NCBI GenBank assembly: GCA_034658835.1
Contig: JAYEGA010000058.1
Coordinates: 1-44,683 of the forward strand
From: Thermodesulfobacteriota bacterium
Lineage (GTDB): Bacteria; Desulfobacterota; Syntrophia; Syntrophales; JADFWA01
DNA: 44,683 bases
Reading direction: 5' to 3'
The notes under the pieces are model-generated. The model was not told the origin of the DNA and made no database searches. It was given only the letters and a program-made list of their open reading frames with translations. This document shows positions 3,063-18,502 of the stretch, piece after piece; positions within the stretch are counted from its first letter, which is position 1; each line of letters starts with the position of its first letter. Made by a program: the position numbers and the translations under genes.

Positions 3063-5696
3063 TTGACTGTGCAGAAAACCCGGTCCAGCGATAAAAATAA
3101 GCGTTTTGAAATCAATTCAATGCTTTCCATCTGGCTGGCCACTCTAACTGTTGTTTTCTTGATTGTCCTGTTTGCTCTGGTCATCAACAGTGCAAGGGAA
3201 AAAGATATGGTGGAGCAGTATAGTAAACAGCAGCTTACTATTGCCAGGGGGACAGCCGCTGGAATAGAGGATCTCGTTGTTGGCGTTGAGAGGAGTATGA
3301 TAAATCTGTCCAGGCTTCCATGTGTTAAGGGAACTATGCCCGAAGCCACACTCCAGAGCTTGAAGGTAATATATAGTGATCTGGAAGGGAAGGTCAGTTT
3401 TATAGCCATAGAAGATAAGGATGGAGTAGCTATAGGTGCTTACCCGGCTTCTTTCCTGAAAGAAATGACGGGTGAGAGCTTTCAATTTTACCGCTATTTT
3501 CAGGAGGTAAAGAAAACAGGAAGACCGTATATAAGCGATCTGGTACTGGCGGGTGGAGAAAAAGGTAAGGACTTGGAAAGCAAATTTAAGTCTATTATTA
3601 TTGCTGTTCCCAGATATGATTCAGACAATGAGTTTTCCGGTGTGGTTTTTGCCGCCCTTTCTCTTTCCACCATAATCGATCGGTACATCAGGCCGGTCAA
3701 GTGTGAGGTATCGTGCTATTCCTGGATGGTGGATGATGGTGGTACAATACTTGTCCACCATGACGCGGAATTTATAGGAAAGAATATAGGGATACTCGAA
3801 GGCGCTAAATCTCAGGGATCAATACCCCTGAAAGATATTCTGCTGAAAGATGAAGGGGGATACGGTGAGTATTTGCTGCTTGCAGATGGTGGCAGGGTTG
3901 AAAAAAATGTTGTAGCCTATGCCCCGATTCATCTGGGTTCACGAAAAAGGGTGATCGCCATCAATTCTCCTTATGATATGGTGATTTCACTTTTGCGTAA
4001 GACTTTTCTCGATATCATGTCTGTAGCTGTCGGGTTGATTGTTGTCGTTATTATCGGAAGTATGTTTATGGTCCATTCGGGGAGAAAGCGACTGCGTCTC
4101 GAAGAAGAAGTGAAGCACCTGAAGGAGAGGAGTGTCTGGCAGGAAAAACTCGCCAGGGAGAAGAAGACCATTGAAGGAATCATAGAAGGATCTCCCATAC
4201 CGACATTTGTCATAAATAAAGAGCATGAGATCATCCTCTGGAGCAAGGCCTGTACTGAGCTGACCGGTTTTGACAGCAAGGAGATGATAGGCACAGACAG
4301 GCAGCATGTTCCATTCTATCCGGACAAGAGACCGGTTATAGCCGATCTGATTATTGATAATGATACTGAAGGATTGAAAAAGTATTATGGTGGTAAGATG
4401 GTACAGGAGTCGGTGGTAGTAAAGGGTGCTTATGAAGCGAGTGATTTCTTTAAGGACTTAGGTGGTAAAGATAGACACCTCTATTTTTTGGCGGCTCCGA
4501 TATATGATAAAAAAGGGGAGGTTATTGCAGCTATTGAAACCCTTCAGGATGTCTCCCATGAAAAGGAAATGGGACTCAAATTAAAGGAATATGCGGAGAC
4601 CCTCGAAAATGAACTGGATAAAAATGTCAGGCTAAAAGATGAGATGGAAGGACTTTACAATTATCTACAGTCTATATTGGATAGTTCCCCCGATCTGGTA
4701 TTTGTCTTCAACAGTGAGGGAGCTATCGATTATGTCAGCCGGGAAATGAGAGAAAAAAACGGATCTGCCTTTCAGCAGATCAAGGGTAAACATTTTACAG
4801 GATTTGTTGCCCCGGAACACAGGGATTCCATGCTTGAAAAATGGAAAGAGATAAAGAGAGGAATATTTAAACCTTTCGAGATTGAGGTAAAAAGAGAGGA
4901 TGGTTCGGCAAGAAATTTATTGTTAATCTCCGGCCCGATTAAGGGCACGGACCGGTATGTTGTTGTTCAACGTGATATTACGGAATTTAAAAACCTTGAG
5001 AAAAAATTCTATGAGAGCCAGAAGCTTGCTGCTGTGGGACAGTTGTCCGCCGGTATTGCACACGAAGTCAGAAACCCGCTTTCTTCTATAAAAATGAGCC
5101 TTCAAATTCTGGAAAAAAGGCTGAAACCTTCAGGAAATGATTTGAAGAGATTCAAGATTGCCGAGAAGGAGGTTGAGCACCTGGAGAAACTGGTAAGAGA
5201 TATCCTTATTTTTGCCAAGCCTGGAGAACCTAAAAAGGAACTTGATGATATCAATAAATTTCTTGGACGTTCTCTTGCAATGGCTGAAAAGGAAATATCG
5301 GACAAAAAGATAAATATCCAGTATATGTATGATAAAAATATTCCGCTTGTGAAATTTGATTCAGCCATGTTGGAGGAGGCATTTTTAAATATCTATCTCA
5401 ATGCTGTTGACGCAATGGAAGATCGGGGAAAGCTCTTAATATCGACGAAACTGCTTAAGAATAAGCATGATTCCATCGTTGTTAAGATTGAGGATAATGG
5501 TTGTGGTATTGATGAGGAGGACCTGCATCACATATTCAACCCATTTTTTACGAAGAAGAAGTATGGTACCGGTCTTGGGTTGACCCAGGTTAAGAAGATT
5601 GTTGACCTGCATCAGGGAACGGTGGAAGTCGTAAGTAAAAAGGGGAAAGGAACGACAGTTTGTATCACATTTCCTATTTTCAGTGAGGAAACGTGA
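3063..5696 (+). CDS. Sensor histidine kinase (TM, periplasmic Cache, TM, two PAS domains, HisKA, HATPase_c)
   Basis: H-box is AAVGQLSAGIAHEVRNPL. N-box is LNIYLNAVDAM. G-boxes are DNGCGI and GTGLGL. Two hydrophobic segments flank about 270 aa of Cache-like sequence. The TTG start sits 5 nt after AAGGAG; an alternative ATG is at 3120. Confidence 0.9.
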   Translation: MTVQKTRSSDKNKRFEINSMLSIWLATLTVVFLIVLFALVINSAREKDMVEQYSKQQLTIARGTAAGIEDLVVGVERSMINLSRLPCVKGTMPEATLQSLKVIYSDLEGKVSFIAIEDKDGVAIGAYPASFLKEMTGESFQFYRYFQEVKKTGRPYISDLVLAGGEKGKDLESKFKSIIIAVPRYDSDNEFSGVVFAALSLSTIIDRYIRPVKCEVSCYSWMVDDGGTILVHHDAEFIGKNIGILEGAKSQGSIPLKDILLKDEGGYGEYLLLADGGRVEKNVVAYAPIHLGSRKRVIAINSPYDMVISLLRKTFLDIMSVAVGLIVVVIIGSMFMVHSGRKRLRLEEEVKHLKERSVWQEKLAREKKTIEGIIEGSPIPTFVINKEHEIILWSKACTELTGFDSKEMIGTDRQHVPFYPDKRPVIADLIIDNDTEGLKKYYGGKMVQESVVVKGAYEASDFFKDLGGKDRHLYFLAAPIYDKKGEVIAAIETLQDVSHEKEMGLKLKEYAETLENELDKNVRLKDEMEGLYNYLQSILDSSPDLVFVFNSEGAIDYVSREMREKNGSAFQQIKGKHFTGFVAPEHRDSMLEKWKEIKRGIFKPFEIEVKREDGSARNLLLISGPIKGTDRYVVVQRDITEFKNLEKKFYESQKLAAVGQLSAGIAHEVRNPLSSIKMSLQILEKRLKPSGNDLKRFKIAEKEVEHLEKLVRDILIFAKPGEPKKELDDINKFLGRSLAMAEKEISDKKINIQYMYDKNIPLVKFDSAMLEEAFLNIYLNAVDAMEDRGKLLISTKLLKNKHDSIVVKIEDNGCGIDEEDLHHIFNPFFTKKKYGTGLGLTQVKKIVDLHQGTVEVVSKKGKGTTVCITFPIFSEET

Positions 5697-5739
5697 GAAA
5701 GATTGGAGATTAAGGGTTAAGTTTATTAGGAGTGGTGGC

Positions 5740-7119
5740 ATGTCGAAGATTCTTGTAGTGGATGATGACAGTTCTATATGTGAGACCCTCAAACTATATT
5801 TGACTGAAGAAGGGCATGAAGTACATACAGCACTGACCGGTACTGATGGGTTGAATAAGGTAGTTGAGGTTTCCCCTGATGTTGTAATTCTGGATATAAG
5901 ACTCCCGGATATTGACGGCTTTACCGTATTGGAAGATCTAAAAACGGATGATGAAGACACTAAAGTGATTATGATTACCGCTCATCATGATATGGATACG
6001 GCTATCAAGGCAATGAAGGAGGGGGCCTTTGATTACATTCACAAACCTATTGATGTTGATGAGCTGGACATAACCATTCAGAAGGCTTTAACAACCCTTG
6101 AAATGGAAAAGAAGATAAATGGTCTCCTCATGGAGCCTTCGAGGGATTTCAAGGTGGGGGACATTATTGGTGCAAGCAGTGCGATGAGCGAGATTTTTAA
6201 AATCATAGGAGTTGTTTCTCAGAGTAAAACAACAGTGCTTATTCAAGGAGAGAGCGGAACTGGTAAGGAACTGATTGCAAAGGTTATACATAGTAGCACG
6301 TCGAGCATTGAGCCTTATATAGCGATAAACTGCTCCGCCATTGTGGATACCCTCCTCGAATCTGAACTTTTTGGTCATGAGAAGGGCTCTTTTACCGGGG
6401 CAATAAGCAGAAAATTGGGTAAATTTGAGCTTGCCCGTTATGGTACGGTTTTTTTAGATGAGATCAGCGAGATGTCGATAAACCTTCAGGCCAAGCTCCT
6501 GAGAGTACTCCAGGAGATGGAGTTTGAGAGGGTTGGAGGTAAAGACAGGGTAAAGGTTAATGCAAGGATAATCACTGCCACCAACAAGGATCTCAAGAAA
6601 CTTGTGAGAGAAGGAAAATTCAGGGATGATCTTTATTATCGCCTGAATATTGTGTCAATAAACATCCCTCCACTGAGAGAGAGGGGAGAGGATATCCATC
6701 CACTTGTTAACTATCTCCTCAAAAAGATCAATCGTGAACTTCATAAGAGGATTGTTGGTGTATCTGATGAAATGATGGACGTCTTTATGAAATACAACTG
6801 GCCTGGAAATATCAGGGAGCTGGAGAATCTTCTGGTTAGAGCTACTGTTATAGCCAAGGGGCAGGTTCTCGGAAGAGGTGATTTCCCTGATCTGTTGGAA
6901 GACTTTTCCGAAGGAGAAATTCGGAGCGAAACGATAAACGAAGAAAGCGAAAAAGATGAGAATTTTGAGATCTGTACCATAGATGAAATAGAAAAGAAGC
7001 ATATAAGGAGAATAATCGAGAAAACCGGCAGGAATAAGGGTGAAATCTGCAAAATACTCGGTATCTCGCGGCCTACACTTGAGAGAAAATTAGAAAAGTA
7101 TGGTATAAAGTTTGAGTAA
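5740..7119 (+). CDS. Sigma-54-dependent response regulator (REC, AAA+ sigma-54 interaction domain, Fis-type HTH)
   Basis: The REC domain shows ILVVDDD and ILDIRLPDIDG. Walker A is GESGTGKE, and the GAFTGA-type loop is GSFTGA. ESELFGHEKG is present, and the C-terminal HTH is ICKILGISRPTLERKL. I prefer the ATG at 5740 (SD AGGAG upstream) over the track's GTG at 5683, which overlaps the kinase. Confidence 0.92.
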   Translation: MSKILVVDDDSSICETLKLYLTEEGHEVHTALTGTDGLNKVVEVSPDVVILDIRLPDIDGFTVLEDLKTDDEDTKVIMITAHHDMDTAIKAMKEGAFDYIHKPIDVDELDITIQKALTTLEMEKKINGLLMEPSRDFKVGDIIGASSAMSEIFKIIGVVSQSKTTVLIQGESGTGKELIAKVIHSSTSSIEPYIAINCSAIVDTLLESELFGHEKGSFTGAISRKLGKFELARYGTVFLDEISEMSINLQAKLLRVLQEMEFERVGGKDRVKVNARIITATNKDLKKLVREGKFRDDLYYRLNIVSINIPPLRERGEDIHPLVNYLLKKINRELHKRIVGVSDEMMDVFMKYNWPGNIRELENLLVRATVIAKGQVLGRGDFPDLLEDFSEGEIRSETINEESEKDENFEICTIDEIEKKHIRRIIEKTGRNKGEICKILGISRPTLERKLEKYGIKFE

Positions 7120-7125
7120 TAATGA

Positions 7126-7713
7126 ATGAAAATAACATCGGTAGACTTCATAAAGAGTGCCAGGGAACCCTCTCAGTATCCGAAGAGTTCACTTCCGGAG
7201 GTAGCCTTTGCCGGTAGATCCAACGTGGGAAAATCTTCGCTTATTAACACGCTTGTTAATCGAAAAAGGTTTGCCCGGACGAGCACCACTCCCGGAAGAA
7301 CACGGCTTATAAATTTTTTCATGATAAATAACCGTGTTTGTTTCGTCGACCTTCCCGGTTATGGATATGCCAGGGTACCCCTTTCTGTAAAGAGGGATTG
7401 GGGACCCATGGTGGAAAAATATCTTAGGGAACGGGAGAATCTGCGCCTTGTCATTTTAATCCTTGATGTAAGAAGGGATCCATCTGAGGGTGATCTTTCT
7501 CTTCTTGAATGGCTCCATTTTTATCGTATTAATGTCCTCGTTATTCTGACAAAAATCGACAAACTTTCCAGGAATCAAATAAAGATTCGACAGCAATGTA
7601 TAAAAAAGATCTTAGAATTATCTCTTGATAGTAACATAATTCTGTTTTCTGCCAGGACGGGCGAAGGAAAAGGGGCTATCTGGAAGGAGATAGAAAAAAG
7701 CAGTAAGCAGTAA
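7126..7713 (+). CDS. engB: Ribosome-biogenesis GTPase EngB/YsxC/YihA
   Basis: G1 is GRSNVGKSSLIN, G3 is DLPGYG and G4 is TKIDK. The length is typical at 195 aa. The gene starts 6 nt after the regulator stop. Confidence 0.9.
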   Translation: MKITSVDFIKSAREPSQYPKSSLPEVAFAGRSNVGKSSLINTLVNRKRFARTSTTPGRTRLINFFMINNRVCFVDLPGYGYARVPLSVKRDWGPMVEKYLRERENLRLVILILDVRRDPSEGDLSLLEWLHFYRINVLVILTKIDKLSRNQIKIRQQCIKKILELSLDSNIILFSARTGEGKGAIWKEIEKSSKQ

Positions 7714-7747
7714 GCAGTTTTCTTTTTGTAGTATCATCAATCCCGAG

Positions 7748-10700
7748 GTGTGGAAGTTGTTAAAAGAGAGCGAAAAAATTGGTGCTGTGATGGTTGTGGG
7801 TTCGGGTATAGCAGGAATCCAGGCTTCCCTTGACCTTGCGAATTCCGGCATAAAGGTATACCTCGTTGAAGATAGCATCAGTATCGGTGGTGTTATGGCC
7901 CAGCTCGACAAGACATTTCCCACCAATGACTGTTCTACCTGTATTCTGTCTCCAAAGCTGGTTGAAGTCGGAAGACACCCGAATGTGGAAATCATGACGA
8001 GGAGGACGGTAGAATCCGTTGAGGGAGAACCCGGACTCTTTAAGGTAAAACTCAAGAAGGCGCCGAGATTCGTTGACATTGATAAATGTACCGGGTGTGG
8101 TGATTGCGCCAATGTTTGTCCTGTATCAGTCCCGTCGGATTTTGATGAGAACCTGGATAACAGGAAGGCTATATACAGGCATTTCCCCCAGGCCATCCCG
8201 AGTGCTTTTGCCATAGACAAACTGGGGACATCTCCATGTAAGGCGGCATGTCCGACCCATATCAGTGTGCAGGGCTATGTGGCCCTGATTGCCGAGGGGA
8301 AGTACAGGGAGGCCCTGGAGCTCATCAAGAGAGACAATCCCTTTCCAGCCGTTTGCGGCAGGGTTTGCCACCATCCCTGTGAGGCGGCCTGTAAGAGGGG
8401 TGAGGTTGAAGAGCCGATCGCCATTATGCATTTGAAGAGATTTGTGGCCGACCTTGATCTGGATGATGAGACAAAGTATGTCCCGGAGGTAAAGGAGAAG
8501 AAGGATAAGAAGGTTGCCATAATCGGTTCCGGTCCTGCCGGACTGAGTGCTGCCTATTATCTTGCCATTGAAGGTTATCAGATTACTGTATTTGAATCCC
8601 TTCCAGTTGCCGGCGGAATGCTGGCAGTGGGTATCCCGGAATACCGCCTCCCGAAAGATATCCTCAACGCAGAAATAAAGATTATTGAAGACCTTGGTGT
8701 TAAAATCAAGGTCAATGCAAAAGTGGGCAAAGATATCACGATGGGTGACCTTAAAGATGGATATGATGCCCTGTTTATTGGTGTAGGCTCCCATGTTAGC
8801 AGCAAGCTTGACGTTTCAGGAGAGGAACTTGAAGGGGTTATTCACGGGATAGACTTTTTGAGAAGGGTGAATCTGGGAGAAAAGGTTTTCCTGGGGGATA
8901 GGGTTGCGGTAATCGGCGGTGGAAATGTTGCGATGGATGCTGTTCGTACGGCGCTCAGAACCGGTTCCAGGGATGCTTTCGTGCTCTACAGGAGATCGCG
9001 TGCCGAGATGCCCGCCTTACCTGAAGAGATTGAAGGAGCAATAGAGGAAGGGATCAAGATCGAATATCTGGTAGCGCCGGTGAAGATACTTGGCACGGAT
9101 GGTAAAGTGACCGGCGTCGAATGTGTCCGTATGAAACTGGGTGAACCTGATGCAGGCGGCCGCAGACGTCCTGTTCCGATAGAGGGATCGGAATTTATAC
9201 TTGAAGCAGATGCGGTTCTTCCCGCGATAGGTCAGACAAGTGATCTGTCATTTATTGCAGAGGAAAGCGAAATTTCTATCAACAGGTGGAATACCTTTGA
9301 AGTTGATCCGGTGACCTTTGCTACCAGCGTGGAGGGTGTTTTTGCGGGTGGTGATGATGTTACGGGTCCCGCCACTGTGGTCGAGGCCATCAACGCCGGG
9401 AAAGAGGCGGCTATTTCTATAGACCGTTATTTTAAAAATGTGGATATTAAGGCGGGCAGGGAGAGAGATTGGACCAAAGGTATTGCTGATGAGGCTGACA
9501 CCAGCGGAATGAAGAAAATTGATCGATACAGACCATCCACCCTCGAACCAGAGAGGAGAATAACCGACTTTGATGAAGTTGTTAAAATTTTAAGTGAGGG
9601 TGATGCTGTCAGAGAGGCAAAAAGGTGTCTTGACTGCGGGATATGTTCTGAATGTTACCGGTGTGTTGATGCCTGTCTGGCTGATGCCATTGACCATGAA
9701 ATGAAGGCAGAGGAGGAAACCATCGAGGTTGGCGCTGTTATTGCTGCCCCTGGATTTGAAGTCTTTGATGCAAAGATTAAAGGAGAATATGGCTTTGGTG
9801 TCTACGACAATGTGGTGACAAGTATACAGTTTGAAAGGATATTATCCGCGTCCGGTCCCTATTTTGGTCACGTTAAAAGAATCTCTGATGGCAAAGAGCC
9901 TGAGAAGATAGCCTTTATTCAGTGTGTAGGTTCAAGAGATACATCCTGCGGGAATAGCTGGTGTTCTTCCGTATGCTGTATGTACGCAACAAAGGAGGCC
10001 ATTATCAGCAAAGAGCATGTCAGGGGGCTTGAACCTGCCATATTCTACATGGATATCCGTGCCTACGGAAAGGATTTTGACCGGTTTGTCGAAAGGGCCA
10101 GGGAGGAGTACGGTATAAGATATATCAGATCTATACCTTCAACAATTAAGGAGATGCAGCAGACAAAAAATCTTCTTATTACATATGTCCTGGAAGATGG
10201 AACGCTTACTGAAGAAGAGTTTGATATGGTGGTTCTTTCTGTCGGTCTAACCCCGCCAAAGGATGCACCGAAACTTGCAGAGACTCTGGGAATAGAGTTA
10301 GATGAACATGGTTTCTGCAGAACCTCTCTAATAAATCCTGTGCAGACCTCCCGTGACGGTGTTTTTGTTTGTGGCGTCTTTGGTGGTCCCAAGGACATCC
10401 CTGAGACTATTATGGAGGCGAGTGGTGCCGTGGCATGTGCGGAAGGTTTGCTGGCTTCCCGGCGGGGGACACTTATTACGGAGGAAGAAATTCCTTTAGA
10501 GATAGATTTGAGAGGTGTTGGTCCGAGGATAGGGGTTTTTGTATGCCGTTGCGGAATCAATATAGGCGGAGTGGTGGATGTGCCTGTAGTAGTTGAATAT
10601 ACTAGGACCCTTCCCAATGTGGTCTACGTTGAGGAGAACCTTTTTACCTGTTCTCAGGATACAGCGGTGAATATGGCTGAAGTAATCAAGAATCACAACC

Positions 10701-12187
10701 TTACCAGAGTTGTGGTGGCATCCTGTTCTCCCCGGACACATGAAAGTCTCTTTCAGGAGAATTGTGAAAAGGCGGGTCTGAACAGGCATCTCTTTGAGAT
10801 GGCTAATATCAGAGATCAGGATTCGTGGGTCCATATGAATGAACCTGAGGCGGCGACGGAGAAGGCGAAGGATCTGGTTCGTATGGCTGTGGCTAAGGCG
10901 GAGTATCTGAACCCTTTGAAGCCTGGGCAGCTCAGTGTAAATAAAACAACATTGATCATCGGAGGTGGACTTGCCGGGATAACGGCTGCCCTCTCTCTTG
11001 CTGATCAGGGTTTTGAATCCTATATCGTGGAGAAGGAAAACGAGCTGGGTGGAAATTATCGGAAGTTGTATTATACTCTGGAAGGCCTTGATACCAGGGA
11101 ACACCTAACTGCCCTGCTGGAGCGTGTTGAAAAGAGTGAATTGGTACATGTTTACGCCGGGGCAAAGATAAAGAATATCGAAGGATTTATAGGTAATTAC
11201 GAGACCACAATTGAAGCTGGAGGAGACGAGCACCGGTTTGAACATGGTGTGGTTATAGTGGCAACAGGGGCATGCGAACTTAAGACAGATGAATATCTCT
11301 ATGGTCAGAATGATAATGTGGTAACTCAGCGGGAGCTTGAAGAACTCATTTATGAAAAGGGCGCAAAGGTTGTCAGAGCAAAAAGCGTAGTCATGATACA
11401 GTGTGTCGGCTCAAGGAATGCCGAGAGACCGTACTGCAGCAGATATTGTTGCAGTGAGGCCATAAAAAATGCCCTGAAGTTAAAAGAGACTGATCCGGAC
11501 AAGGATGTCACTGTACTCTACAGGGATATCAGGACATACGGACTTAAGGAAGAGTATTATAAAAAGGCCCGTGAGGCCAATGTCAAGTTCATCTGCTATG
11601 ATGAAGAGAGGAAGCCTGAAGTAAAGAGCGTTGGCTCTAAAGTTTATGTAACGGTTTTTGATCCGATATTGAATGAATCGGTGGAACTAGAAGCGGATAT
11701 GCTGGTGTTGAGTGTTGGCACGGTTGCCAATCCTGACAATGATGCCATTGGCAAAGCGCTGAAGGTGTCGATAAATCAGGATGGTTTCTTCCTTGAGGCC
11801 CATGTAAAGTTAAGGCCTGTTGATTTTGCAACGGATGGTATTTTCCTGTGCGGGATGGCCCATTCTCCGAAGATGAGTGATGAGACCATCACTCAGGCTA
11901 ATGCTGCCGTATCCAGGGCATGTACTATTCTGACCAAAGACTTTATAGAATCCGAAGGGAAGATTGCCTGTGTAATCAAGGAAAGATGTATGGCCTGCGG
12001 GCTTTGTGAGGTAAACTGTCCCTTTGGCGCTATAGAGGTGGATGAGAAAGAGGGTTATGCTGTGGTGAACACAGTTCTCTGTAAGGGATGTGGTGTGTGT
12101 ACTGCCTCGTGCAGGATGAATGCAGTTGATTTGGAAGGATTTAATAATGAGGAAATTCTGGCACAGATAGCAGCATTGACAGGTTAG
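7748..12187 (+). CDS. Giant HdrA-like flavo-iron-sulfur fusion protein: an HdrA module with an inserted GltD/NfnB-type NAD(P)H module, followed by a second complete HdrA module (HdrL-like)
   Basis: aa 14-70 show the HdrA FAD motifs VVGSGIAGIQASLDLA and FPTNDCSTCIL. CTGCGDCANVCP is at aa 114-125. aa ~160-560 resemble the glutamate-synthase small subunit (CKAACP...NPFPAVCGRVCHHPCEAACKRG, IIGSGPAGLSAA, VIGGGNVAMDA, VFAGGDD). CLDCGICSECYRCVDAC is at aa 627-643. CVGSRD...CSSVCCMYATKEA follows. The second module starts near aa 925 with IGVFVCRCGINIGG, IIGGGLAGITAA and CVGSRN...CSRYCCSEAIKNA. The C-terminus carries CMACGLCEVNCP and CKGCGVCTASC. The frame is continuous, with no internal stop. Confidence 0.85.
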   Translation: MWKLLKESEKIGAVMVVGSGIAGIQASLDLANSGIKVYLVEDSISIGGVMAQLDKTFPTNDCSTCILSPKLVEVGRHPNVEIMTRRTVESVEGEPGLFKVKLKKAPRFVDIDKCTGCGDCANVCPVSVPSDFDENLDNRKAIYRHFPQAIPSAFAIDKLGTSPCKAACPTHISVQGYVALIAEGKYREALELIKRDNPFPAVCGRVCHHPCEAACKRGEVEEPIAIMHLKRFVADLDLDDETKYVPEVKEKKDKKVAIIGSGPAGLSAAYYLAIEGYQITVFESLPVAGGMLAVGIPEYRLPKDILNAEIKIIEDLGVKIKVNAKVGKDITMGDLKDGYDALFIGVGSHVSSKLDVSGEELEGVIHGIDFLRRVNLGEKVFLGDRVAVIGGGNVAMDAVRTALRTGSRDAFVLYRRSRAEMPALPEEIEGAIEEGIKIEYLVAPVKILGTDGKVTGVECVRMKLGEPDAGGRRRPVPIEGSEFILEADAVLPAIGQTSDLSFIAEESEISINRWNTFEVDPVTFATSVEGVFAGGDDVTGPATVVEAINAGKEAAISIDRYFKNVDIKAGRERDWTKGIADEADTSGMKKIDRYRPSTLEPERRITDFDEVVKILSEGDAVREAKRCLDCGICSECYRCVDACLADAIDHEMKAEEETIEVGAVIAAPGFEVFDAKIKGEYGFGVYDNVVTSIQFERILSASGPYFGHVKRISDGKEPEKIAFIQCVGSRDTSCGNSWCSSVCCMYATKEAIISKEHVRGLEPAIFYMDIRAYGKDFDRFVERAREEYGIRYIRSIPSTIKEMQQTKNLLITYVLEDGTLTEEEFDMVVLSVGLTPPKDAPKLAETLGIELDEHGFCRTSLINPVQTSRDGVFVCGVFGGPKDIPETIMEASGAVACAEGLLASRRGTLITEEEIPLEIDLRGVGPRIGVFVCRCGINIGGVVDVPVVVEYTRTLPNVVYVEENLFTCSQDTAVNMAEVIKNHNLTRVVVASCSPRTHESLFQENCEKAGLNRHLFEMANIRDQDSWVHMNEPEAATEKAKDLVRMAVAKAEYLNPLKPGQLSVNKTTLIIGGGLAGITAALSLADQGFESYIVEKENELGGNYRKLYYTLEGLDTREHLTALLERVEKSELVHVYAGAKIKNIEGFIGNYETTIEAGGDEHRFEHGVVIVATGACELKTDEYLYGQNDNVVTQRELEELIYEKGAKVVRAKSVVMIQCVGSRNAERPYCSRYCCSEAIKNALKLKETDPDKDVTVLYRDIRTYGLKEEYYKKAREANVKFICYDEERKPEVKSVGSKVYVTVFDPILNESVELEADMLVLSVGTVANPDNDAIGKALKVSINQDGFFLEAHVKLRPVDFATDGIFLCGMAHSPKMSDETITQANAAVSRACTILTKDFIESEGKIACVIKERCMACGLCEVNCPFGAIEVDEKEGYAVVNTVLCKGCGVCTASCRMNAVDLEGFNNEEILAQIAALTG

Positions 12188-12201
12188 AAAGCTTTGAAAA
12201 T

Positions 12202-12639
12202 ATGGCTGAAAATAGACTAAATAAAGGTTGGGAGCCAAAGATTGTTGCTTTTTGTTGTAACTGGTGTACCTATGCCGGGGCTGACCTGGCAGGTATAAGC
12301 CGGATACAGTATCCACCGAATGTGAGAATAATAAGGGTTCCATGTACGGGCAGGATAGATCCCTTTTATATTGTCAAGGCTCTTCAGGAAGGAGCGGATG
12401 GTGTGCTTGTATCCGGTTGTCACCCCGGGGAGTGCCACTATCTGACAGGGAATTTATCTGCCAGGAGAAAATTTGCCATGTTGAAGAATTTCCTTTCATA
12501 CCTTGGGATAGAACCTGACAGGACTGTATTTACATGGGTTTCTGCGTCTGAGGGGGAGAAATTTGCCCGGGTTGTCAAAGGTGTGACGGATGCTGTTAAG
12601 ACGCTTGGTCCGGCGAATAAACTGGTAAAAAGAATATAA
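12202..12639 (+). CDS. mvhD: MvhD/FlxD-type (methyl-viologen-reducing hydrogenase delta subunit-like) protein
   Basis: IVAFCCNWCTYAGADLAG...RVPCTGR...LVSGCHPGECHY is the characteristic MvhD cysteine pattern. The gene starts 14 nt after the HdrL-like stop. Confidence 0.85.
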   Translation: MAENRLNKGWEPKIVAFCCNWCTYAGADLAGISRIQYPPNVRIIRVPCTGRIDPFYIVKALQEGADGVLVSGCHPGECHYLTGNLSARRKFAMLKNFLSYLGIEPDRTVFTWVSASEGEKFARVVKGVTDAVKTLGPANKLVKRI

Positions 12640-12651
12640 TAACAGTTTACA

Positions 12652-12686
12652 GTGGTTAGTGGTCAGTGGTCAGTGGTTAGTGGTCA
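12652..12686. repeat. Heptanucleotide tandem repeat (GTGGTYA)x5
   Basis: The sequence reads GTGGTTA GTGGTCA GTGGTCA GTGGTTA GTGGTCA. It lies between the mvhD stop (12639) and the first plausible start of the next gene. Confidence 0.9.
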
Positions 12687-13717
12687 GGGAACAGGGGTCA
12701 GAAATATTGGAAAGCATAGAAAAACAACTGCGGGAAGAAGCAAAAAGACTGTTGGTTGAAAAGAGAGTGGATGTCATTGTGGGGTATGAAAAAGGCACTC
12801 TTCCTCTTTGCTCTGTACCATGTTTTATATCAGATTCAGGAGATGCGGAAAGGCTCGTCTGGGATTTCTTCTGTATGCAGAACCTGGCTAAATATGTACA
12901 TGATCTCCTTTTTCAGCATAAGGAATCACAAAGGAATGTTAAACCGGAGGATAAAACAAGAAAGGTTATAGGAGTTGTTGCAAAAGGGTGTACTTCCAGA
13001 TCTCTGGTAATACATCTTCAGGAGAGACAGTATGACAGGGATGAAGTGGTGATTATTGGCGTTCCCTGCGCAGGTTATGTGGCTAAAGAAAAGATGGTCG
13101 AGAGAGTAAGCGGCGAGGAAATACTTGAGGGAAGGGTTGAAGGAGACAGGGTATCAGTCAAGATAGCGAGTGGTGTTAAAGATATTCCGTTGAGGGATGT
13201 TATTGCCGATAATTGTCTTACATGCCGTTTTAATAATCCGGTTATATCAGATATGATGATAGGTGATGAAACCCCGCCGATAGATGCTGATCGGGAATAC
13301 GTTCAGGTCGATGAATTTGAGAAACTGCCGCTTGAAGAGCGCTGGGCCTATTTTGCCGGTGAGATGGGCAAATGCATACGTTGTTATGCCTGCCGTAACG
13401 CCTGTCCGTCCTGTTACTGCAAAGTCTGTTTTGTTGAACAGAGCCGGCCCAACTGGGTCGGAATCGGCGAGGATCAAACAGACACACAGGTGTTTCAAAT
13501 AATGCGTATGTTCCATACAGCCGGACGTTGTGTCGACTGTGGATCATGTGTGGAAGTGTGTCCCATGAACGTTGATTTGAGGAAGTTTCTGAAGAAACTG
13601 GACAAGGATTCTTTTGAGTTGTTTGAACACAGAGCGGGAATTGTGCTTGATGAACCCGCACCTCTTGCCACTTTCAGGGATACCGATAAAGAAGAATTTA
13701 TATTTGATCCGGAATGA
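12659..13717 (+). CDS. Iron-sulfur protein, FlxC/HydB(AsrA)-like, with two [4Fe-4S]-type motifs
   Basis: CIRCYACRNACPSCYC and CVDCGSCVEVCP have the same arrangement as the protein at 15200-16225. The start is uncertain. The track's GTG at 12659 lies inside the heptamer repeat. TTG at 12707, preceded by GGGG, or GTG at 12680 are alternatives. There is no ATG near the 5' end. Confidence 0.6.
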   Translation: MVSGQWLVVREQGSEILESIEKQLREEAKRLLVEKRVDVIVGYEKGTLPLCSVPCFISDSGDAERLVWDFFCMQNLAKYVHDLLFQHKESQRNVKPEDKTRKVIGVVAKGCTSRSLVIHLQERQYDRDEVVIIGVPCAGYVAKEKMVERVSGEEILEGRVEGDRVSVKIASGVKDIPLRDVIADNCLTCRFNNPVISDMMIGDETPPIDADREYVQVDEFEKLPLEERWAYFAGEMGKCIRCYACRNACPSCYCKVCFVEQSRPNWVGIGEDQTDTQVFQIMRMFHTAGRCVDCGSCVEVCPMNVDLRKFLKKLDKDSFELFEHRAGIVLDEPAPLATFRDTDKEEFIFDPE

Positions 13718-13736
13718 AAAAGTTGATGGAGTAAAT

Positions 13737-14261
13737 ATGGAAACATTTCTGGAAGAAGTCAACAGTAGAATAGACGGTGTGCCCATACAGAGATGTTATC
13801 ACTGCCGGAAGTGCACGGCAGGGTGTCCTGTAGCCTTTGCAATGGATTACAATCCAAATACGATCATAAAAATGATTCAGATGGGTAGAAGAGATGAGGT
13901 ACTCAACAGTTCTACTATATGGCTATGTGCTTCCTGCGAAACCTGTGTTACGCGCTGTCCTAATGAGGTTGATATAGCCAGGATGATGGATGTCTTAAGA
14001 GAGATGGCTATAGAATCAGAGGTAAGGATTAAGGAAAAGAATATACTGAAATTTCATGAGGCTTTCCTTTCAAATGTGAAGATGGGTGGGCGTATAAATG
14101 AACCTCTTATGATTGTTAATTATAAGTTAAAATCGGGTGATTACTTTTCTGATATGGCGTTGGGTATAAGTATGTTTATTAAAGGCAAGCTTTTCCTCCT
14201 TTCCCCGAGAACAAAAGACATGAAATCAGTAAAAAAGATATTTGAGGAAACGAAAAGATAA
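13737..14261 (+). CDS. hdrC: Heterodisulfide reductase subunit C-like protein
   Basis: The spacing of CYHCRKCTAGCP and CASCETCVTRCP is typical of HdrC. The ATG at 13737 is preceded by GATGGAG. The track's upstream extension overlaps the previous gene. Confidence 0.8.
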   Translation: METFLEEVNSRIDGVPIQRCYHCRKCTAGCPVAFAMDYNPNTIIKMIQMGRRDEVLNSSTIWLCASCETCVTRCPNEVDIARMMDVLREMAIESEVRIKEKNILKFHEAFLSNVKMGGRINEPLMIVNYKLKSGDYFSDMALGISMFIKGKLFLLSPRTKDMKSVKKIFEETKR

Positions 14262-14287
14262 CTGAAAGTGTATCAAGGAGAATATAG

Positions 14288-15139
14288 TTGAGAGTTTCAT
14301 ATTACCCAGGATGCTCCCTTCACGCTACGGCAACAGAATACAATCAATCTGTTCGAGCTGTAAGCAGGGCCTTGGGGATCGAGCTTAAGGAAGTTGAAGA
14401 TTGGTCCTGTTGCGGTGCCACTTCTGCCCACAGTACCAATTTCAAATTATCGATTGCCCTTCCCACCAGAAATCTCGTCTCTGCAGAAAAGGATGACCTG
14501 GATATGATAATGGTTCCCTGTGCGGCCTGCTTTAACCGTTTTAAAACCGCTCAATATCACCTTGGGAGGGATGAAGAGCTAAGGACTGAGATAGAGGATA
14601 TCGTTGGTGGAGAATATAAGGGGAGCATTGCGGTAAGGAATCCTGTGGATGTTGTTTTCAATGAAATTGGCCTTGATGTTCTGAATGAAAAGGTAACCAG
14701 AAAATTATCAGGCCTTAAACCGGTTTCTTATTATGGATGTCTCTTGCTGAGACCCCCGGAGATCTGTGAATTTGATAACTACGAAAATCCGTATATGTTG
14801 GATGGAATTATGGAGAGCCTTGGCGCTGAATCCCGCCCGTGGTCCTATAAGACGGATTGCTGTGGAGGAAGCCTTACCCTGGGCAAAACTGAAATTGTCG
14901 TTCGCCTGGTGGATAAGTTAATGAGGATGGCGAGAGAAGCGGGCGCCAATTGCCTGGTTACTGCCTGTCCGATCTGCATGGCAAATTTGGATATGAGGGC
15001 CAGCGAGGGCGTGAGACTTCCGGCATTTTACTTTACGGAACTTATTGCCTTAGCGATGGGTTTGGAGGGACCGGAGAAGTGGTTCAAGATGCACAATGTT
15101 GACCCGAGATCTCTTCTTAACTCTCTGGGGTTTATATAG
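14288..15139 (+). CDS. hdrB: Heterodisulfide reductase subunit B-like protein (two CCG domains)
   Basis: YYPGCSL...WSCCGA is followed by YYGCLL...CCGG...ACPICMANL, the duplicated CCG cysteine motif. The TTG start is preceded by AAGGAG. Confidence 0.85.
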   Translation: MRVSYYPGCSLHATATEYNQSVRAVSRALGIELKEVEDWSCCGATSAHSTNFKLSIALPTRNLVSAEKDDLDMIMVPCAACFNRFKTAQYHLGRDEELRTEIEDIVGGEYKGSIAVRNPVDVVFNEIGLDVLNEKVTRKLSGLKPVSYYGCLLLRPPEICEFDNYENPYMLDGIMESLGAESRPWSYKTDCCGGSLTLGKTEIVVRLVDKLMRMAREAGANCLVTACPICMANLDMRASEGVRLPAFYFTELIALAMGLEGPEKWFKMHNVDPRSLLNSLGFI

Positions 15140-15199
15140 TATGGGACAGTTTTGGATGGTTATGCAAAGATTTAAGTATAAGTGGTGAGAAGGAAAGGT

Positions 15200-16225
15200 A
15201 TGGAAAAAAGGCTGATAAATAAGGAAATGCTTTCCGATGCTATAAAGAGAATTGCTGAAGAAATGCCGGTTTATGCACCGGTTAGAGAAGATGGAGACAT
15301 TTTCTTCAGAGTCTTGGAAGAGGGGATGGAACTTTTGACAGACTATTCCAATTCTAAAAATGCTCCCAAAAACATTTTCTTTCCCCATACCGAGGTAATG
15401 ATGAAATATACCAGAACCGACATGGGAATGGAGATTTCAGGGGGCGGGGAGGAAGCAAAAGAGGCGGTGCTCTTCGGTGTTCGTCCCTGTGATGCATTGA
15501 GTTTTGTCCTTCTGGATATGGTTTTTGACCAGAAAGAGTACCGTGATCCTTATTATATTGATAAGAGGAAGAAAACTATCATTATATCGCTTGCCTGCGT
15601 GCATCCCCCCTATACGACCTGTTTCTGTACATCGGTTGGGGGAAGCCCCATATCCTCGGAGGGTGCGGATGTGTTACTGACAGATATTGGGAAGAATTAT
15701 CTTGTTGAGTTTATAACTGACAAAGGAGAGAAACTCCTGGAGAAATTTGGAGACCTTCCCAAAGCCGACAGGGGAGTTGAAACACTTAAGGAAGAGATAT
15801 GTGAAAGAGCAGAAAAAGAGATCAAGTCCCATATACCTGCCCGTGAGATAAAACCGATACTGGATAACAATTTTGAACACCCCTTCTGGGATACAATCCA
15901 CCAAAGGTGTCTTGCCTGTGGAACCTGTACTTATTTATGTCCGACCTGTCATTGTTTCGACATCAGTGATGAGGTCAAGGGTGATGGTGGAAGGCGGATA
16001 AGATCCTGGGATTCCTGTATGTACTGGTTATTTACCCATGAAGCATCCGGTCACAATCCGAGACCGTCGCAGAAGGAGAGGTGGAGGCAGAGGGTGATGC
16101 ACAAGTTTAAGTATTATGTGGACAATTTTCAGGCCATTTCCTGTGTGGGTTGTGGCAGGTGTGTGAGGTATTGCCCGGTTAACATAGATATTAGAAAGAT
16201 AGTTGAAGATGTATCTAAGCTATAG
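15200..16225 (+). CDS. Iron-sulfur protein, FlxB / sulfhydrogenase-beta (HydB) / AsrA-like
   Basis: CLACGTCTYLCPTCHCFD and CVGCGRCVRYCP match the hallmark pattern of the HydB/AsrA family. I prefer the ATG at 15200. Confidence 0.7.
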   Translation: MEKRLINKEMLSDAIKRIAEEMPVYAPVREDGDIFFRVLEEGMELLTDYSNSKNAPKNIFFPHTEVMMKYTRTDMGMEISGGGEEAKEAVLFGVRPCDALSFVLLDMVFDQKEYRDPYYIDKRKKTIIISLACVHPPYTTCFCTSVGGSPISSEGADVLLTDIGKNYLVEFITDKGEKLLEKFGDLPKADRGVETLKEEICERAEKEIKSHIPAREIKPILDNNFEHPFWDTIHQRCLACGTCTYLCPTCHCFDISDEVKGDGGRRIRSWDSCMYWLFTHEASGHNPRPSQKERWRQRVMHKFKYYVDNFQAISCVGCGRCVRYCPVNIDIRKIVEDVSKL

Positions 16226-16240
16226 ATTGTGGAGATAGTA

Positions 16241-17080
16241 ATGCAGAATCCATATATGCCGATCCCTGTTGATGTGGAGAAAATTATAACAGAGGTAGAC
16301 ACGAAAGATATCAAGACCTTCAGGGTGGTTTTTGTTCGTGAAGAAGAAAAAGAAAACTTTAAGTATCTGCCGGGGCAGTTTGCCGAGCTTTCTATCTTCG
16401 GCAAGGGGGAATCCCCGATCGGTATTGCATCGTCACCGACGCAGCCGGACTACCTTGAATTTACAGTTCAGAAAGCGGGTGTTGTAACCACTGCGCTTCA
16501 TAATCTTGAGGAAGGAAGCCGGATCGGTATAAGGGGTCCCCTGGGCAATTCGTGGCCCATTGACTATCTCGAGGGGAAAAATATTGTTGTGGTTGGTGGT
16601 GGTTTTGCCTTTACTACTCTCAGGTCTCTGATTAACTATATGATTCACGACAATAACAGGTCACGATTCGGTAATATCACGGTTGTTTACGGGGCAAGGA
16701 GCCCAGGTCTTTTGATCTACAAAGATGAACTTTCCGACTGGGAAAAAAGGGAAGATATTGATATATATGTTACTGTGGATAAGGGAGATGAGACCTGGAA
16801 GGGTAGGGAAGGGTTTGTTCCTACGGTCTGCAAAGAGGTAGGGCCGAGCTCTGAAAATGCCGTGACCTTGATATGCGGGCCACCGATTATGATCCGTTTT
16901 ACACTGCCGGTATTTTTTGAATTAGGTTTTTCCAGAGAGAACATCATTACTTCTCTTGAAATGAGAATGAAGTGCGGGATCGGGAAATGTGGACGTTGTA
17001 ATGTCGGCAATAAATATGTCTGTAAGGATGGACCTATCTTTTCACTGACTGAGCTTGATGAACTTACGAAAGAATATTAG
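16241..17080 (+). CDS. FAD/NAD(P)H-binding oxidoreductase with a C-terminal [2Fe-2S] motif, FlxA / sulfhydrogenase-gamma (HydG) / AsrB / PyrK-like
   Basis: The flavin-binding segment is FKYLPGQFAELSIFG and the NAD-binding segment is VVVGGGFAF. The C-terminal motif is MKCGIGKCGRCNVG. Confidence 0.75.
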   Translation: MQNPYMPIPVDVEKIITEVDTKDIKTFRVVFVREEEKENFKYLPGQFAELSIFGKGESPIGIASSPTQPDYLEFTVQKAGVVTTALHNLEEGSRIGIRGPLGNSWPIDYLEGKNIVVVGGGFAFTTLRSLINYMIHDNNRSRFGNITVVYGARSPGLLIYKDELSDWEKREDIDIYVTVDKGDETWKGREGFVPTVCKEVGPSSENAVTLICGPPIMIRFTLPVFFELGFSRENIITSLEMRMKCGIGKCGRCNVGNKYVCKDGPIFSLTELDELTKEY

Positions 17081-17088
17081 AATTTTTT

Positions 17089-17132
17089 GCAAACGGTGGC
17101 ATATAAGGTGCCTTTTACATGCCACCGTTTGC
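17089..17132. terminator. Strong hairpin between convergent flxA-like and atpB genes, probably a bidirectional terminator
   Basis: A perfect 14-bp stem, GCAAACGGTGGCAT (17089-17102) / ATGCCACCGTTTGC (17119-17132), is preceded by a T6 run. Confidence 0.6.
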
Positions 17133-17160
17133 TGAAAGCTGACGGCTGAAAGCTGATAGC
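17131..17160. repeat. Heptamer-type tandem repeat (GCTGANN)x4
   Basis: The sequence reads GCTGAAA GCTGACG GCTGAAA GCTGATA GC. It lies immediately 3' of atpB. Confidence 0.75.
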
Positions 17161-17164
17161 TCTT

Positions 17165-17821
17165 TTAGTGTGCTTCCTCCATCGCCCCTGCTATATACAT
17201 CATCGACAGCAGTACGAAGACCAGTGTCTGGATTACCGCCACAAGAAATTCAAGCGCAAGAACCGGCAATGGTACAATCAGGGGAACCAGCACAAACAAC
17301 ACACCCAGCATAATGTGTCCACCCTCCATATTTCCGAATAGTCGCACCGAAAGAGACAGAGGACGGGACAGATGACTTATTACCTCAATCGGAAACATAA
17401 GTGGCGTTAGCCACCAGACAGGTCCCAGGAATTGTTTAATGTACTTAAATCCGTGAATCTTGACGCCAATGATATGTGTCGTAACGAAAACGACCAGCGC
17501 CATGGAAACGGTAGTATTGAGATTGCTGGTGGGTCCCTCAAATCCCGGAATCTTCCCTACTATATTTGAGGTCAAAATGAAAAGGGCCAAAGTTGCCATA
17601 AGGGGGAAGAACTTTCTCCCTTCAGGTCCCATGGTATCGACAAGTAAATTGTCTATACCGCCTATGATCACTTCCATAAAATTCTGAAATCTGCCTGGAT
17701 AGATATCCATACGGCGCGTTGCCAGAAAGGAAAACAGGAGCAGGAGTACCATAATGAACCAGGTATAAGTTACATGTGGTGGAAAAAAGTTATTCTCAAA
17801 AAATAAAAAAGAATGCTGCAT
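17165..17821 (-). CDS. atpB: F-type ATP synthase subunit a
   Basis: The conserved region [15 protein letters not shown] contains the essential Arg. The protein has a multi-TM profile and a typical length of 218 aa. Confidence 0.9.
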
Positions 17822-17824
17822 CGC

Positions 17825-18220: not shown

Positions 18221-18464
18221 ATTTTAAACGCTTTATTATAGGCTTTTCATCTCTGAAGTTCTTTTTGATCACATAATATACATTCCTGAATCCCGCAGTA
18301 GTCCCTATGAGAAAAAACAGCAGTGCAAGTTTATGTCCTGTCCCAAGTTTCCGATCCAGGTATGCTCCAACAAGGAGACCTCCAGCACTCATGATGACCA
18401 TCGCAAAACCGAGGCTGCTGACATGAGCCATCTGGATCATGGATGTTTTCATTTCTTTATCCAT
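18180..18464 (-). CDS. AtpZ/AtpR-type small membrane protein ('F0F1-ATPase gene 1' family)
   Basis: There are two TM helices, with the motifs LGFAMVIMSAGGLLVGAYLDRKLGT and LLFFLIGTTAGFRNVY. The position upstream of atpI-atpB fits. The start is uncertain; I use the ATG at 18464, whereas the track's start at 18506 overlaps the fcl stop. Confidence 0.6.
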   Translation of the reverse strand: MDKEMKTSMIQMAHVSSLGFAMVIMSAGGLLVGAYLDRKLGTGHKLALLFFLIGTTAGFRNVYYVIKKNFRDEKPIIKRLKYEPHRRRPDPQKA

Positions 18465-18502
18465 TGCAAACCAAGATCTTCTATCACAAAGCGCAGGGGA
18501 AG

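Follow-up and report, generated by a model that had tools for sequence, protein, structure and literature searches.

How one polypeptide could combine two HdrA-like modules with a NAD(P)H-binding module of the GltD/NfnB type, and what reaction such a protein could serve, is the question raised by a long open reading frame (ORF) on contig JAYEGA010000058.1 of a Thermodesulfobacteriota bacterium placed in the Syntrophales (GenBank assembly GCA_034658835.1). The stretch analyzed, 44,683 nucleotides (nt) from position 1 of the contig, is referred to as the window, and the gene and its product as hdrL and HdrL. HdrA-based complexes make up one of the four families of flavin-based electron-bifurcating enzymes known so far. 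An earlier note, made from the DNA letters alone, had described the product as an HdrA-HdrA tandem fusion with a NAD(P)H module spliced into the first ferredoxin domain. The comparisons below suggest that the chain corresponds to one asymmetric HdrA dimer, and that the spliced module may bring NADP(H) to the site at which ferredoxin would otherwise dock.

Two HdrA modules in one chain

The ORF runs for 1479 codons from a GTG, with no stop before the terminal TAG. Translation probably begins at the TTG at 7757, which lies 8 nt from a GAGG at 7745-7748 and gives a product of 1476 amino acids (aa), the modal length of HdrL homologues. Against HdrA of Methanothermococcus thermolithotrophicus (5odc_A), phmmer aligned the query in four colinear pieces (E = 1e-190; Table 1). 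Scans with Pfam and NCBIfam hidden Markov models detected HdrA-type and GltD-type domains, among them Fer4_20 at aa 161-238 and Pyr_redox_2 at aa 254-551; these scans and the 5ODC alignment bore out the tandem arrangement. The NCBIfam cut-offs for HdrA2 and HdrA were not reached (982 versus 1100 bits and 716 versus 1400 bits). That for PRK12771, "NAD(P)-binding protein", was exceeded over aa 160-662 (582 versus 516 bits), which accounts for the uninformative public names of the homologues.

All of the motifs that the earlier note had quoted were found at the residues given for them. GxGxxG motifs start at aa 18, 260, and 1072, with a GxGxxA variant at aa 390, and CxxCxxCxxxC motifs start at aa 114, 633, 1414, and 1445. 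A Cys-rich segment supplies C164, C168, C203, C207, C211, and C215. FPTNDCSTC contains C62/C65, FVCRCGINIGG contains C933 and C935, CVGSRD...CC comprises C726, C739, C743, and C744, and CVGSRN...CC comprises C1219, C1230, C1234, and C1235. The product is predicted to hold nine [4Fe-4S] clusters, three FAD molecules, and one NADPH site.

The core that identifies an HdrA, namely the FAD fold, CVGSR...C..CC, and a Glu/Lys pair, was found twice, although the full domain set of an HdrA protomer was not found per module. E696 and K749 of module 1 align with HdrA E356 and K409, and their counterparts in module 2 are E1198 and K1240. A three-way alignment with HdrA identified each accessory element once per chain, divided between the modules. 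Module 1 carries the counterpart of the HdrA Cys194/Cys197 motif and the inserted ferredoxin domain, and its thioredoxin-reductase-like domain has the [4Fe-4S] ligands C726 to C744; it has no C-terminal ferredoxin domain, and rather than starting normally, as had been proposed, it lacks the HdrA N-terminal domain of ∼130 aa. Module 2 has the N-terminal and C-terminal domains. It had been described as complete, a claim that failed, since neither the Cys194/197 motif nor an inserted ferredoxin domain occurs in it.

In solved HdrA, Cys197 of one protomer completes the N-terminal-domain cluster of the other protomer, and MvhD docks at the C-terminal ferredoxin domain (PMC9012536). Cys197 acts as a trans-ligand there, and the two modules of HdrL complement each other; the HdrL chain therefore reads as a single asymmetric HdrA dimer rather than as a complete HdrA preceded by a truncated one. 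Sequence identity between thioredoxin-reductase-like cores was 50% for module 1 and HdrA and 41% for module 2 and HdrA. The two module cores were only 32% identical to each other, a degree of divergence more in keeping with the fusion of paralogues that separated long ago than with a recent duplication.

Conservation was assessed over 23 tandem homologues, the most distant of which is 41% identical. Cluster cysteines were invariant or present in at least 22 of the 23, and R626, C627, and C630 were invariant. The FPTNDCxxC motif was found in module 1 of 21/23 and in module 2 of 0/23, with C62/C65 aligned to Cys in 22/23.

That the ORF could be an assembly or frameshift artefact that joins separate genes was an alternative raised by the earlier note, and a pseudogene was considered along with it. 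Split forms of the same two-module partnership do occur in other genomes. In two related loci the modules are adjacent genes that break at the module boundary (L032, 4702-9102, 900 + 566 aa; L050, 10058-14485, 909 + 566 aa). However, HdrL was matched at 74 to 86% identity and 99 to 100% coverage by more than 120 protein clusters of 1445 to 1502 aa, which come from independent assemblies under the names Syntrophales, Smithellaceae, Syntrophaceae, or Syntrophus. A genome scan (one genome per species, confirmed by tblastn) identified at least 597 HdrL relatives, and the locus counts given here refer to the best 80 of these. The full-length fused gene was found at 44/80, of which 37 span the whole query in one ORF and 7 more are fused with an in-frame TGA read as selenocysteine (Sec). 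The window copy has no internal stop and retains every cofactor ligand. An artefact is thus refuted for practical purposes, with a negligible residual probability. As the earlier note had stated, there is no in-frame TGA within the hdrL ORF, and this copy has no selenocysteine.

HdrL-related loci were found in at least 10 phyla. Labels of the full-length loci included Desulfobacterota orders, Bacillota, Chloroflexota, Acidobacteriota, Planctomycetota, Spirochaetes, Bacteroidota, Thermotogae, Aminicenantes, TA06, and an Asgard archaeon. Loci from Desulfobacterium and from Syntrophobacterales metagenome-assembled genomes (MAGs) (L066, L014, and L021) aligned over their full length at ∼50% identity. 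The MAG labelled as an Asgard archaeon (L026, Promethearchaeota, 10001-21974) has a full-length fused hdrL with mvhD, flxC-, flxB-, and flxA-like genes, and hdrCB on the opposite strand, the same parts list as the window operon. In seven Desulfobacterales loci (L015, L019, L020, L038, L039, L044, and L047), hdrL has an in-frame TGA ∼60 codons in, within "FPTNDCAM-U-(I/V)ISPK". This Sec position equals Cys65 of the window copy (window 7931-7942) and Cys197 of HdrA; the window copy has Cys.

The GltD/NfnB-type cassette

When aa 1-930 were searched against protein representatives clustered at 50% identity, dozens of further clusters were recovered, those of ∼1470 to 1530 aa being tandem and those of ∼900 to 1135 aa single-module. 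Insert-free tandem HdrAs of ∼1020 to 1090 aa were colinear with HdrL minus aa 158-632. One of them (L053, 9732-12797; 1022 aa; 55% identity) is colinear with aa 8-157 and 633-1479, and because it aligns with the HdrL flanks alone, the bounds of the cassette were set at aa 158-632. The split and the insert-free homologues support a conserved two-module partnership. The alignment with HdrA that the earlier note had proposed as a check was run, and it placed the insert where expected, inside the inserted ferredoxin domain with one cluster motif on either side.

Profile, Pfam, and predicted-fold comparisons all matched the insert to the GltD/NfnB type. T. maritima NfnB (4ylf_B) matched at E = 2e-103 over its residues 44-459 of 468, and Pyrococcus furiosus NfnL at E = 1.5e-100. 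The best solved matches were Caldicellulosiruptor NfnA (9bov_A; 4e-144), T. sibiricus NfnA (9n5u_A; 7e-137), and Sporomusa StnC (8oh5_C; 7e-129). An AlphaFold2 model of aa 1-924, built from a shallow alignment at 73 to 87% identity, had a predicted local distance difference test score (pLDDT) of 61 and a predicted template-modelling score of 0.54 overall; it was confident at aa 240-570, and the pLDDT of the insert was 75 to 94. Foldseek matched the model to NfnABC, Stn, NfnB, GltD, and DPD, with template-modelling scores of 0.74 to 0.76 normalised to NfnB/GltD chains, so that the GltD fold, whose absence the earlier note had named as a possible refutation, was recovered. Two [4Fe-4S] sites, a FAD Rossmann fold, and a NAD(P)H Rossmann fold were found, and the segment order was not the canonical one.

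In NfnB, "RxxFxEV...EAxRCLxC" comes before PCxxxCP. In HdrL, StnC, and the NfnA of NfnABC, this segment comes after both Rossmann domains, and in HdrL it is "PERRITDFDEVV...EAKRC627LDC630" at the C-terminal end of the cassette (aa 599-630). By this motif order, the HdrL cassette is circularly permuted with respect to NfnB; it starts and finishes at its Fe-S end, adjoining the clusters of the host domain. Judged by sequence, the cluster ligands of the cassette are the six cysteines C164 to C215 together with E212 and K230. In NfnABC, the FAD-proximal cluster is ligated by three Cys and Lys170 (PMC11829005). The HdrL counterparts are C168, C207, C211, and K230, the last present in 21/23 tandem homologues.

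The NAD(P)H fold has GGGNVA at aa 390-395 followed by Y414-R415-R416, as in NADPH-binding NfnB. Y-R-R occurs in 12 to 13 of the 23 tandem homologues, including the window copy (8987-8995), and C-L-E in 9 to 11, a split that suggests NADPH- and NADH-specific subfamilies. The annotation "NADPH-dependent glutamate synthase", carried by some homologues, was rejected, as no GltB-like gene accompanies hdrL, whose context is wholly Hdr/Flx.

The FAD fold of the cassette starts at aa 260. Its flavin could itself bifurcate, as in NfnAB, which would place two or three bifurcating flavins in series, with the two [4Fe-4S] clusters of the cassette as one exit into HdrA and a [2Fe-2S] partner (FlxA, encoded downstream) or a cluster of module 1 as the other. 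Such a cascade was proposed in print by Chadwick et al. for HdrA9-11 of anaerobic methanotrophic archaea (ANME) (PMC9012536). For HdrL, it would fit the ∼44% identity to NfnB, the invariance of R300 (TmNfnB R187), E212 in 22/23, a C203 as in TmNfnB, the Glu/Lys pair kept in both HdrA modules, and the FAD_binding_6/NAD_binding_1/[2Fe-2S] architecture that FlxA has in common with NfnA. Even so, the solved homologues nearest to the cassette are permuted in the same way, have the Lys ligand, and act as non-bifurcating ports: the StnC FAD can no longer bifurcate and passes electrons into a linear chain of clusters (PMC10482914), and the GltD-type FAD of NfnABC NfnA is terminal and non-bifurcating (PMC11829005). 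Conservation of R300 is also not diagnostic, because the equivalent Arg of StnC is conserved but displaced, with no contact to N5 (PMC10482914). FlxA itself scores as a HydG/AsrB-type protein and falls under the cut-off for the NfnA-type model PRK06222 (85 versus 220 bits), and it is absent from about three-quarters of HdrL loci. A cascade is therefore considered unlikely.

The hdrL operon and possible electron routes

The operon has the order hdrL-mvhD-flxC-hdrC-hdrB-flxB-flxA, with downstream gaps of 3 to 42 nt (Table 1). The 352-aa product was assigned as FlxC from the conserved gene order and from its C-terminal cluster domain, which is paralogous to that of the FlxB-like protein (27% identity; E = 2e-7). 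A mechanically called hdrC ORF (TTG 13614) begins 104 nt inside the preceding gene, an overlap that disappears with a start at the ATG at 13737. In HdrB, both CCG motifs are complete and all ten cysteines are kept. FlxA contains FAD_binding_6 and NAD_binding_1 domains and a [2Fe-2S] motif, and it scored 187 to 225 bits as HydG/AsrB type. Scans for σ70-like promoters and for terminators gave counts near shuffle expectation, except for the hairpin directly past flxA, the probable end of the transcription unit.

Table 1. Coordinates of hdrL, its parts, and the operon genes in the window, with the phmmer matches to HdrA of 5ODC (aa numbered from GTG 7748)
Feature	Position (nt)	Strand	Details
hdrL ORF	7748..12187	+	1479 aa (GTG 7748) or 1476 aa (TTG 7757)
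Module 1, N-terminal part (aa 1-157)	7748..8218	+	FAD fold GSGIAG aa 18-23; FPTNDC62STC65 (C62/C65 = HdrA Cys194/Cys197); C114, C117, C120, C124 (first half of inserted ferredoxin domain); no HdrA N-terminal domain
GltD/NfnB-type NADPH cassette (aa 158-632, 475 aa)	8219..9643	+	Bounds from insert-free L053
Module 1, C-terminal part (aa 633-905)	9644..10462	+	C633, C636, C639, C643 (second half of inserted ferredoxin domain)
Inter-module linker, ∼20 aa (aa 906-925)	10463..10522	+	From alignment; gene split of L032 and L050 falls here
Module 2, HdrA N-terminal domain (aa 926-1066)	10523..10945	+	Invariant C933, C935, C968, C993
Module 2, thioredoxin-reductase-like FAD domain (aa 1067-1398)	10946..11941	+	GGGLAG aa 1072-1077; C1219, C1230, C1234, C1235; E1198, K1240
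Module 2, C-terminal 2x[4Fe-4S] ferredoxin domain and stop codon	11942..12187	+	C1414-C1424, C1445-C1455
Match to HdrA 171-290 (phmmer versus 5ODC)			aa 39-158
Match to HdrA 293-511 (phmmer versus 5ODC)			aa 633-850
Match to HdrA 4-180 (phmmer versus 5ODC)			aa 926-1102
Match to HdrA 474-647 (phmmer versus 5ODC)			aa 1304-1475
mvhD/flxD	12202..12639	+	145 aa; FlpD family, [2Fe-2S] type, all-Cys
flxC-like Fe-S protein	12659..13717	+	352 aa
hdrC	13737..14261	+	174 aa; two CxxCxxCxxxC motifs; likely start ATG 13737, GGAG upstream
hdrB	14288..15139	+	283 aa; CCG motifs C9, C41C42, C78, C81 and C151, C191C192, C227, C230
flxB-like Fe-S subunit, HydB/ShyB/AsrA type	15182..16225	+	347 aa; Fer4_22
flxA-like NAD(P)H-binding flavoprotein, HydG/AsrB type	16229..17080	+	283 aa; [2Fe-2S] motif C249, C254, C257, C265
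Terminator-like hairpin and T run	17098..17112	+	Consensus match only; directly past flxA

Across the 80 related loci, MvhD was encoded next to HdrL at 68, HdrC at 50, HdrB at 36, and the FlxC-FlxB-FlxA block at 18 to 22. The five closest relatives have the window gene order. They include two Smithella loci in which mvhD, next to hdrL (L002, ∼5522-6000; L003, ∼14470-14900), has an in-frame TGA within "VLVSG-U-HPGECHY" at the position of Cys73 of the window MvhD; these Sec genes were identified only by direct translation. The operon occurs, then, in a Sec and a Cys form.

The reading we favour, to which we give about an even chance, is that the operon encodes a disulfide reductase linked to Flx, MvhD, and HdrBC, with NADP(H) taking over from ferredoxin at the flavin junction of HdrA, HdrL being a single-chain, asymmetric HdrA "heterodimer" with a GltD-type NADPH port. 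The complementarity and the cassette come from the sequence, and the wiring is modeled on the structures published for HdrA, Stn, and NfnABC. The cluster of the N-terminal domain would be built across the interface of modules 1 and 2, and a single HdrA flavin, in the simplest case that of module 2, would sit at a three-way junction. One branch would pass through MvhD to Flx and end at a NAD(P)H site. The second would run from the module's own [4Fe-4S] cluster through HdrC to the non-cubane clusters of HdrB and a disulfide/dithiol couple. The third would lead from the N-terminal cluster through the inserted ferredoxin clusters and the GltD clusters to the GltD FAD and NADP(H), with the GltD flavin a simple two-electron/one-electron converter that ends a wire. 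The three routes of solved HdrA are described in PMC9012536, and for archaeal type III HdrA the GltD domain was likewise proposed to block the ferredoxin site (PMC12054007). NADP(H) is put in the place of ferredoxin as third substrate because the cassette would fill the site where free ferredoxin docks. The net reaction, which is speculative, could be 2 NADH + NADP+ + RSSR ↔ 2 NAD+ + NADPH + 2 RSH (RSSR and RSH, the disulfide and thiol forms), a transhydrogenation driven by disulfide reduction, or the reverse.

Several observations weigh against this reading. Most of the 80 HdrL loci do not have Flx genes, so the partner of the MvhD branch is variable and the net reaction would hold for this subtype at best. 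As to the thiol/disulfide substrate, none of the window ORFs scanned was DsrC-like. R300, the counterpart of the N5-bonding Arg of bifurcating NfnB, is invariant, and C203 is NfnB-like, not Stn-like, so that the sequence would also fit a bifurcating GltD flavin. K749 and E696 of module 1 are invariant, with K1240 in 19/23 and E1198 in 20/23, and because the pair of module 2 is the less conserved, module 2 is not favoured as the sole catalytic flavin. The AlphaFold2 model has low confidence outside the GltD domain and gives no distances between clusters, and the electron wiring of HdrL is borrowed by analogy from solved relatives.

The roles of the branches could also be opposite, with NADPH, entering through the GltD cassette, as the mid-potential donor and the HdrA flavin bifurcating to the disulfide (high potential, through HdrBC) and to a low-potential acceptor such as ferredoxin, by way of the C-terminal ferredoxin domain, MvhD, and the Flx Fe-S subunits, or with confurcation in the other direction. 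The homologous cassette of Stn/NfnABC feeds a "mid-potential electron path" (PMC10482914, PMC11829005), NAD(P)H was proposed as the mid-potential donor for archaeal type III HdrA (PMC12054007), and at loci that do not have Flx, MvhD must couple to other partners. However, the MvhD branch here ends in FlxA, an FNR-like NAD(P)H flavoprotein and an odd low-potential terminus, and in solved HdrA it is the inserted-ferredoxin branch that is the low-potential exit (PMC9012536). This arrangement is considered rather unlikely.

It is judged improbable that HdrL-HdrBC-Flx works without energy coupling, simply passing electrons between NAD(P)H and a disulfide, or between NADH and NADP+, with its HdrA flavins and clusters as no more than a wire and the module 1 flavin perhaps structural. 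Nothing in the sequence proves bifurcation, and one HdrA module has none of the accessory domains that would give its flavin three exits. Yet the E356/K409 pair of bifurcating HdrA is invariant in module 1 and kept in 19 to 20 of the 23 in module 2, and nine clusters and three flavins, kept across phyla, would be costly for a reaction that a small flavoprotein could carry out.

Under the favoured reading of an asymmetric dimer with a NADPH port, an idea of the earlier note could be kept in part. It had combined two potential bifurcating flavin sites with a pyridine-nucleotide entry site. The NAD(P)H-type module stands; the chain instead has three flavin sites and reads as one asymmetric dimer rather than two bifurcating units, and the closest solved relatives of the entry module have a non-bifurcating FAD port. 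A further conjecture, distinctly unlikely as it stands, is that the HdrL-MvhD-FlxABC-HdrBC complex forms a third kind of energy-coupled transhydrogenase after Nfn and Stn/NfnABC, in which an HdrA flavin would split electrons from NADH, brought in by Flx and MvhD, sending one to the disulfide and the other along a hard-wired low-potential branch to NADP+ through the non-bifurcating GltD cassette. If so, disulfide reduction and not ferredoxin oxidation would pay for NADPH made from NADH, with the reverse in syntrophic propionate oxidation, and the presence of Y-R-R or C-L-E at the 2'-phosphate site would tell NADPH-specific from NADH-specific subfamilies.

Upstream of hdrL (3063-7713), and parted by tiny gaps, are genes for a dCache/PAS histidine kinase, a σ54-dependent response regulator, and ysxC, a ribosome-biogenesis GTPase. 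The ysxC-hdrL adjacency is kept in Smithella (L002 and L003); the kinase and regulator are not orthologously conserved. A promoter search gave no support for control of the operon by the adjacent σ54 response regulator: sites matching TGGCAC-N5-TTGC with at most two mismatches numbered 26 against 31.8 expected, and none was upstream of hdrL. ATP synthase genes on the minus strand (2098-2472 and 17165-18220), comprising atpI-atpB and atpE (c subunit), are parted by the 14.7-kb plus-strand block from the histidine kinase gene to flxA. In L001, atpI, an epimerase gene, and gmd are syntenic downstream of the cluster. The composition profile around the window cluster gave no island signature.

Further downstream (20670-36911) is a complete methylmalonyl-CoA pathway gene set, with two carboxyltransferases, sdhB/D/C/A, a two-subunit fumarase, a malic-enzyme-like protein, a glyoxalase-family epimerase, sucD/sucC, methylmalonyl-CoA mutase and its B12-binding subunit, and MeaB. 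From this set, the host looks like a propionate-metabolising syntroph, and it appears to be of Syntrophales type. The 3′ end of the window (39168-43531, minus strand) carries mobile or defence-type genes: an AbiEii toxin gene (39168-39866) with an unassigned upstream partner (39854-40465), and genes for a PD-(D/E)XK nuclease, an AAA_14/DUF4143 ATPase, and a DUF3368 protein.

Should NADP(H) indeed stand in for ferredoxin at the HdrA junction, enzymes of this class would directly connect the NADH, NADPH, and thiol/disulfide pools, which would be relevant near the thermodynamic limit, for example in syntrophic propionate oxidisers. The HdrL class is common across many anaerobic phyla, including Asgard archaea, and an all-Cys copy accompanied by all of its partner genes in a single operon would lend itself well to heterologous expression.

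HdrL among known systems

HdrL was named in 2009 in Desulfobacterium autotrophicum HRM2 as an "HdrA/glutamate synthase fusion" followed by mvhD (Strittmatter 2009, PMC2702500), and HdrL of Syntrophobacter fumaroxidans (Sfum_0824) was abundant in sulfate-grown cells (Sedano-Nunez 2018, PMC5947623). The link to HdrL that the earlier note had drawn was upheld by the union of HdrA with a glutamate-synthase-type NAD(P)H module, the size of about 1.4 to 1.5 thousand residues, and the downstream mvhD. Compared by description, the window protein resembles both named proteins: all are large, join HdrA to a glutamate-synthase-type portion, and carry NAD(P)H site(s), with mvhD always next and hdrBC often near, and S. 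fumaroxidans, like the window host, has the methylmalonyl-CoA pathway. The window cluster differs from both in having flxC, flxB, and flxA interleaved with hdrCB, and the window copy is all-Cys, unlike HdrL of Desulfobacterales with Sec at the Cys197 equivalent. Literature searches (HdrL, HdrA + NfnB, Syntrophus + HdrA, and NfnABC) returned no biochemical characterisation of any HdrL, and a PDB search gave no full-length match, consistent with the earlier note's view of these proteins as biochemically uncharacterised.

For archaea, both the HdrL architecture and the idea of a pair of bifurcation sites combined with NADPH have been published before (PMC9012536, PMC12054007). In ANME, an NfnB insert lies in the inserted ferredoxin domain of HdrA9-11, and the fused HdrA3/4 were called "their own heterodimeric partners" (PMC9012536). 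The 2025 classification recognizes a GltD insert as type III and a fused double HdrA as type II, neither of them studied biochemically (PMC12054007). The insertion point is identical in these variants and in HdrL, and in both, one half bears the N- and C-terminal ferredoxin domains and the other half bears Cys197. Unlike archaeal types II and III, HdrL has both modifications in one chain. Its module order is the reverse of that in ANME HdrA3/4, the Cys197-bearing half coming first, and its Rossmann motif GxGxxA with Y-R-R would favour NADPH, whereas archaeal type III is reported to have GxGxxG, read as NADH (PMC12054007). Added here are the complementarity rule for the bacterial protein, the permuted cassette in common with Stn/NfnABC, the insert-free and split homologues that define the cassette, the Y-R-R versus C-L-E split, and the Sec positions in relatives.

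The protein resembles MvhADG-HdrABC of M. thermolithotrophicus (5ODC) in its cluster motifs, the Glu356/Lys409 pair, and its MvhD, HdrB, and HdrC partners. It differs in being one asymmetric chain rather than a symmetric homodimer, in having no hydrogenase, and in the GltD cassette on the ferredoxin site. With StnC (8OH5) and NfnA of NfnABC (9BOV, 9N5U), it has in common the permuted order, the Lys ligand, and a cassette inserted into a host Fe-S protein. The host in HdrL is the HdrA ferredoxin domain and not a NuoG-like subunit; C203 is replaced by Ser, Leu, or Thr in Stn/NfnABC, and Cys114 of StnC is absent from HdrL.

The FlxABCD-HdrABC system of Desulfovibrio vulgaris, as reportedly described by Ramos et al. 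in 2015 (cited in PMC5861303 and PMC5947623), combines a HydG-like NAD(P)H flavoprotein with HydB-like Fe-S subunits. The window operon is like it in its HydG-like flavoprotein, two HydB-like Fe-S subunits, MvhD, HdrB, and HdrC. It differs in having HdrL in place of HdrA, the order hdrL-flxD-flxC-hdrC-hdrB-flxB-flxA, and a second pyridine-nucleotide site, on the Hdr side of the complex.

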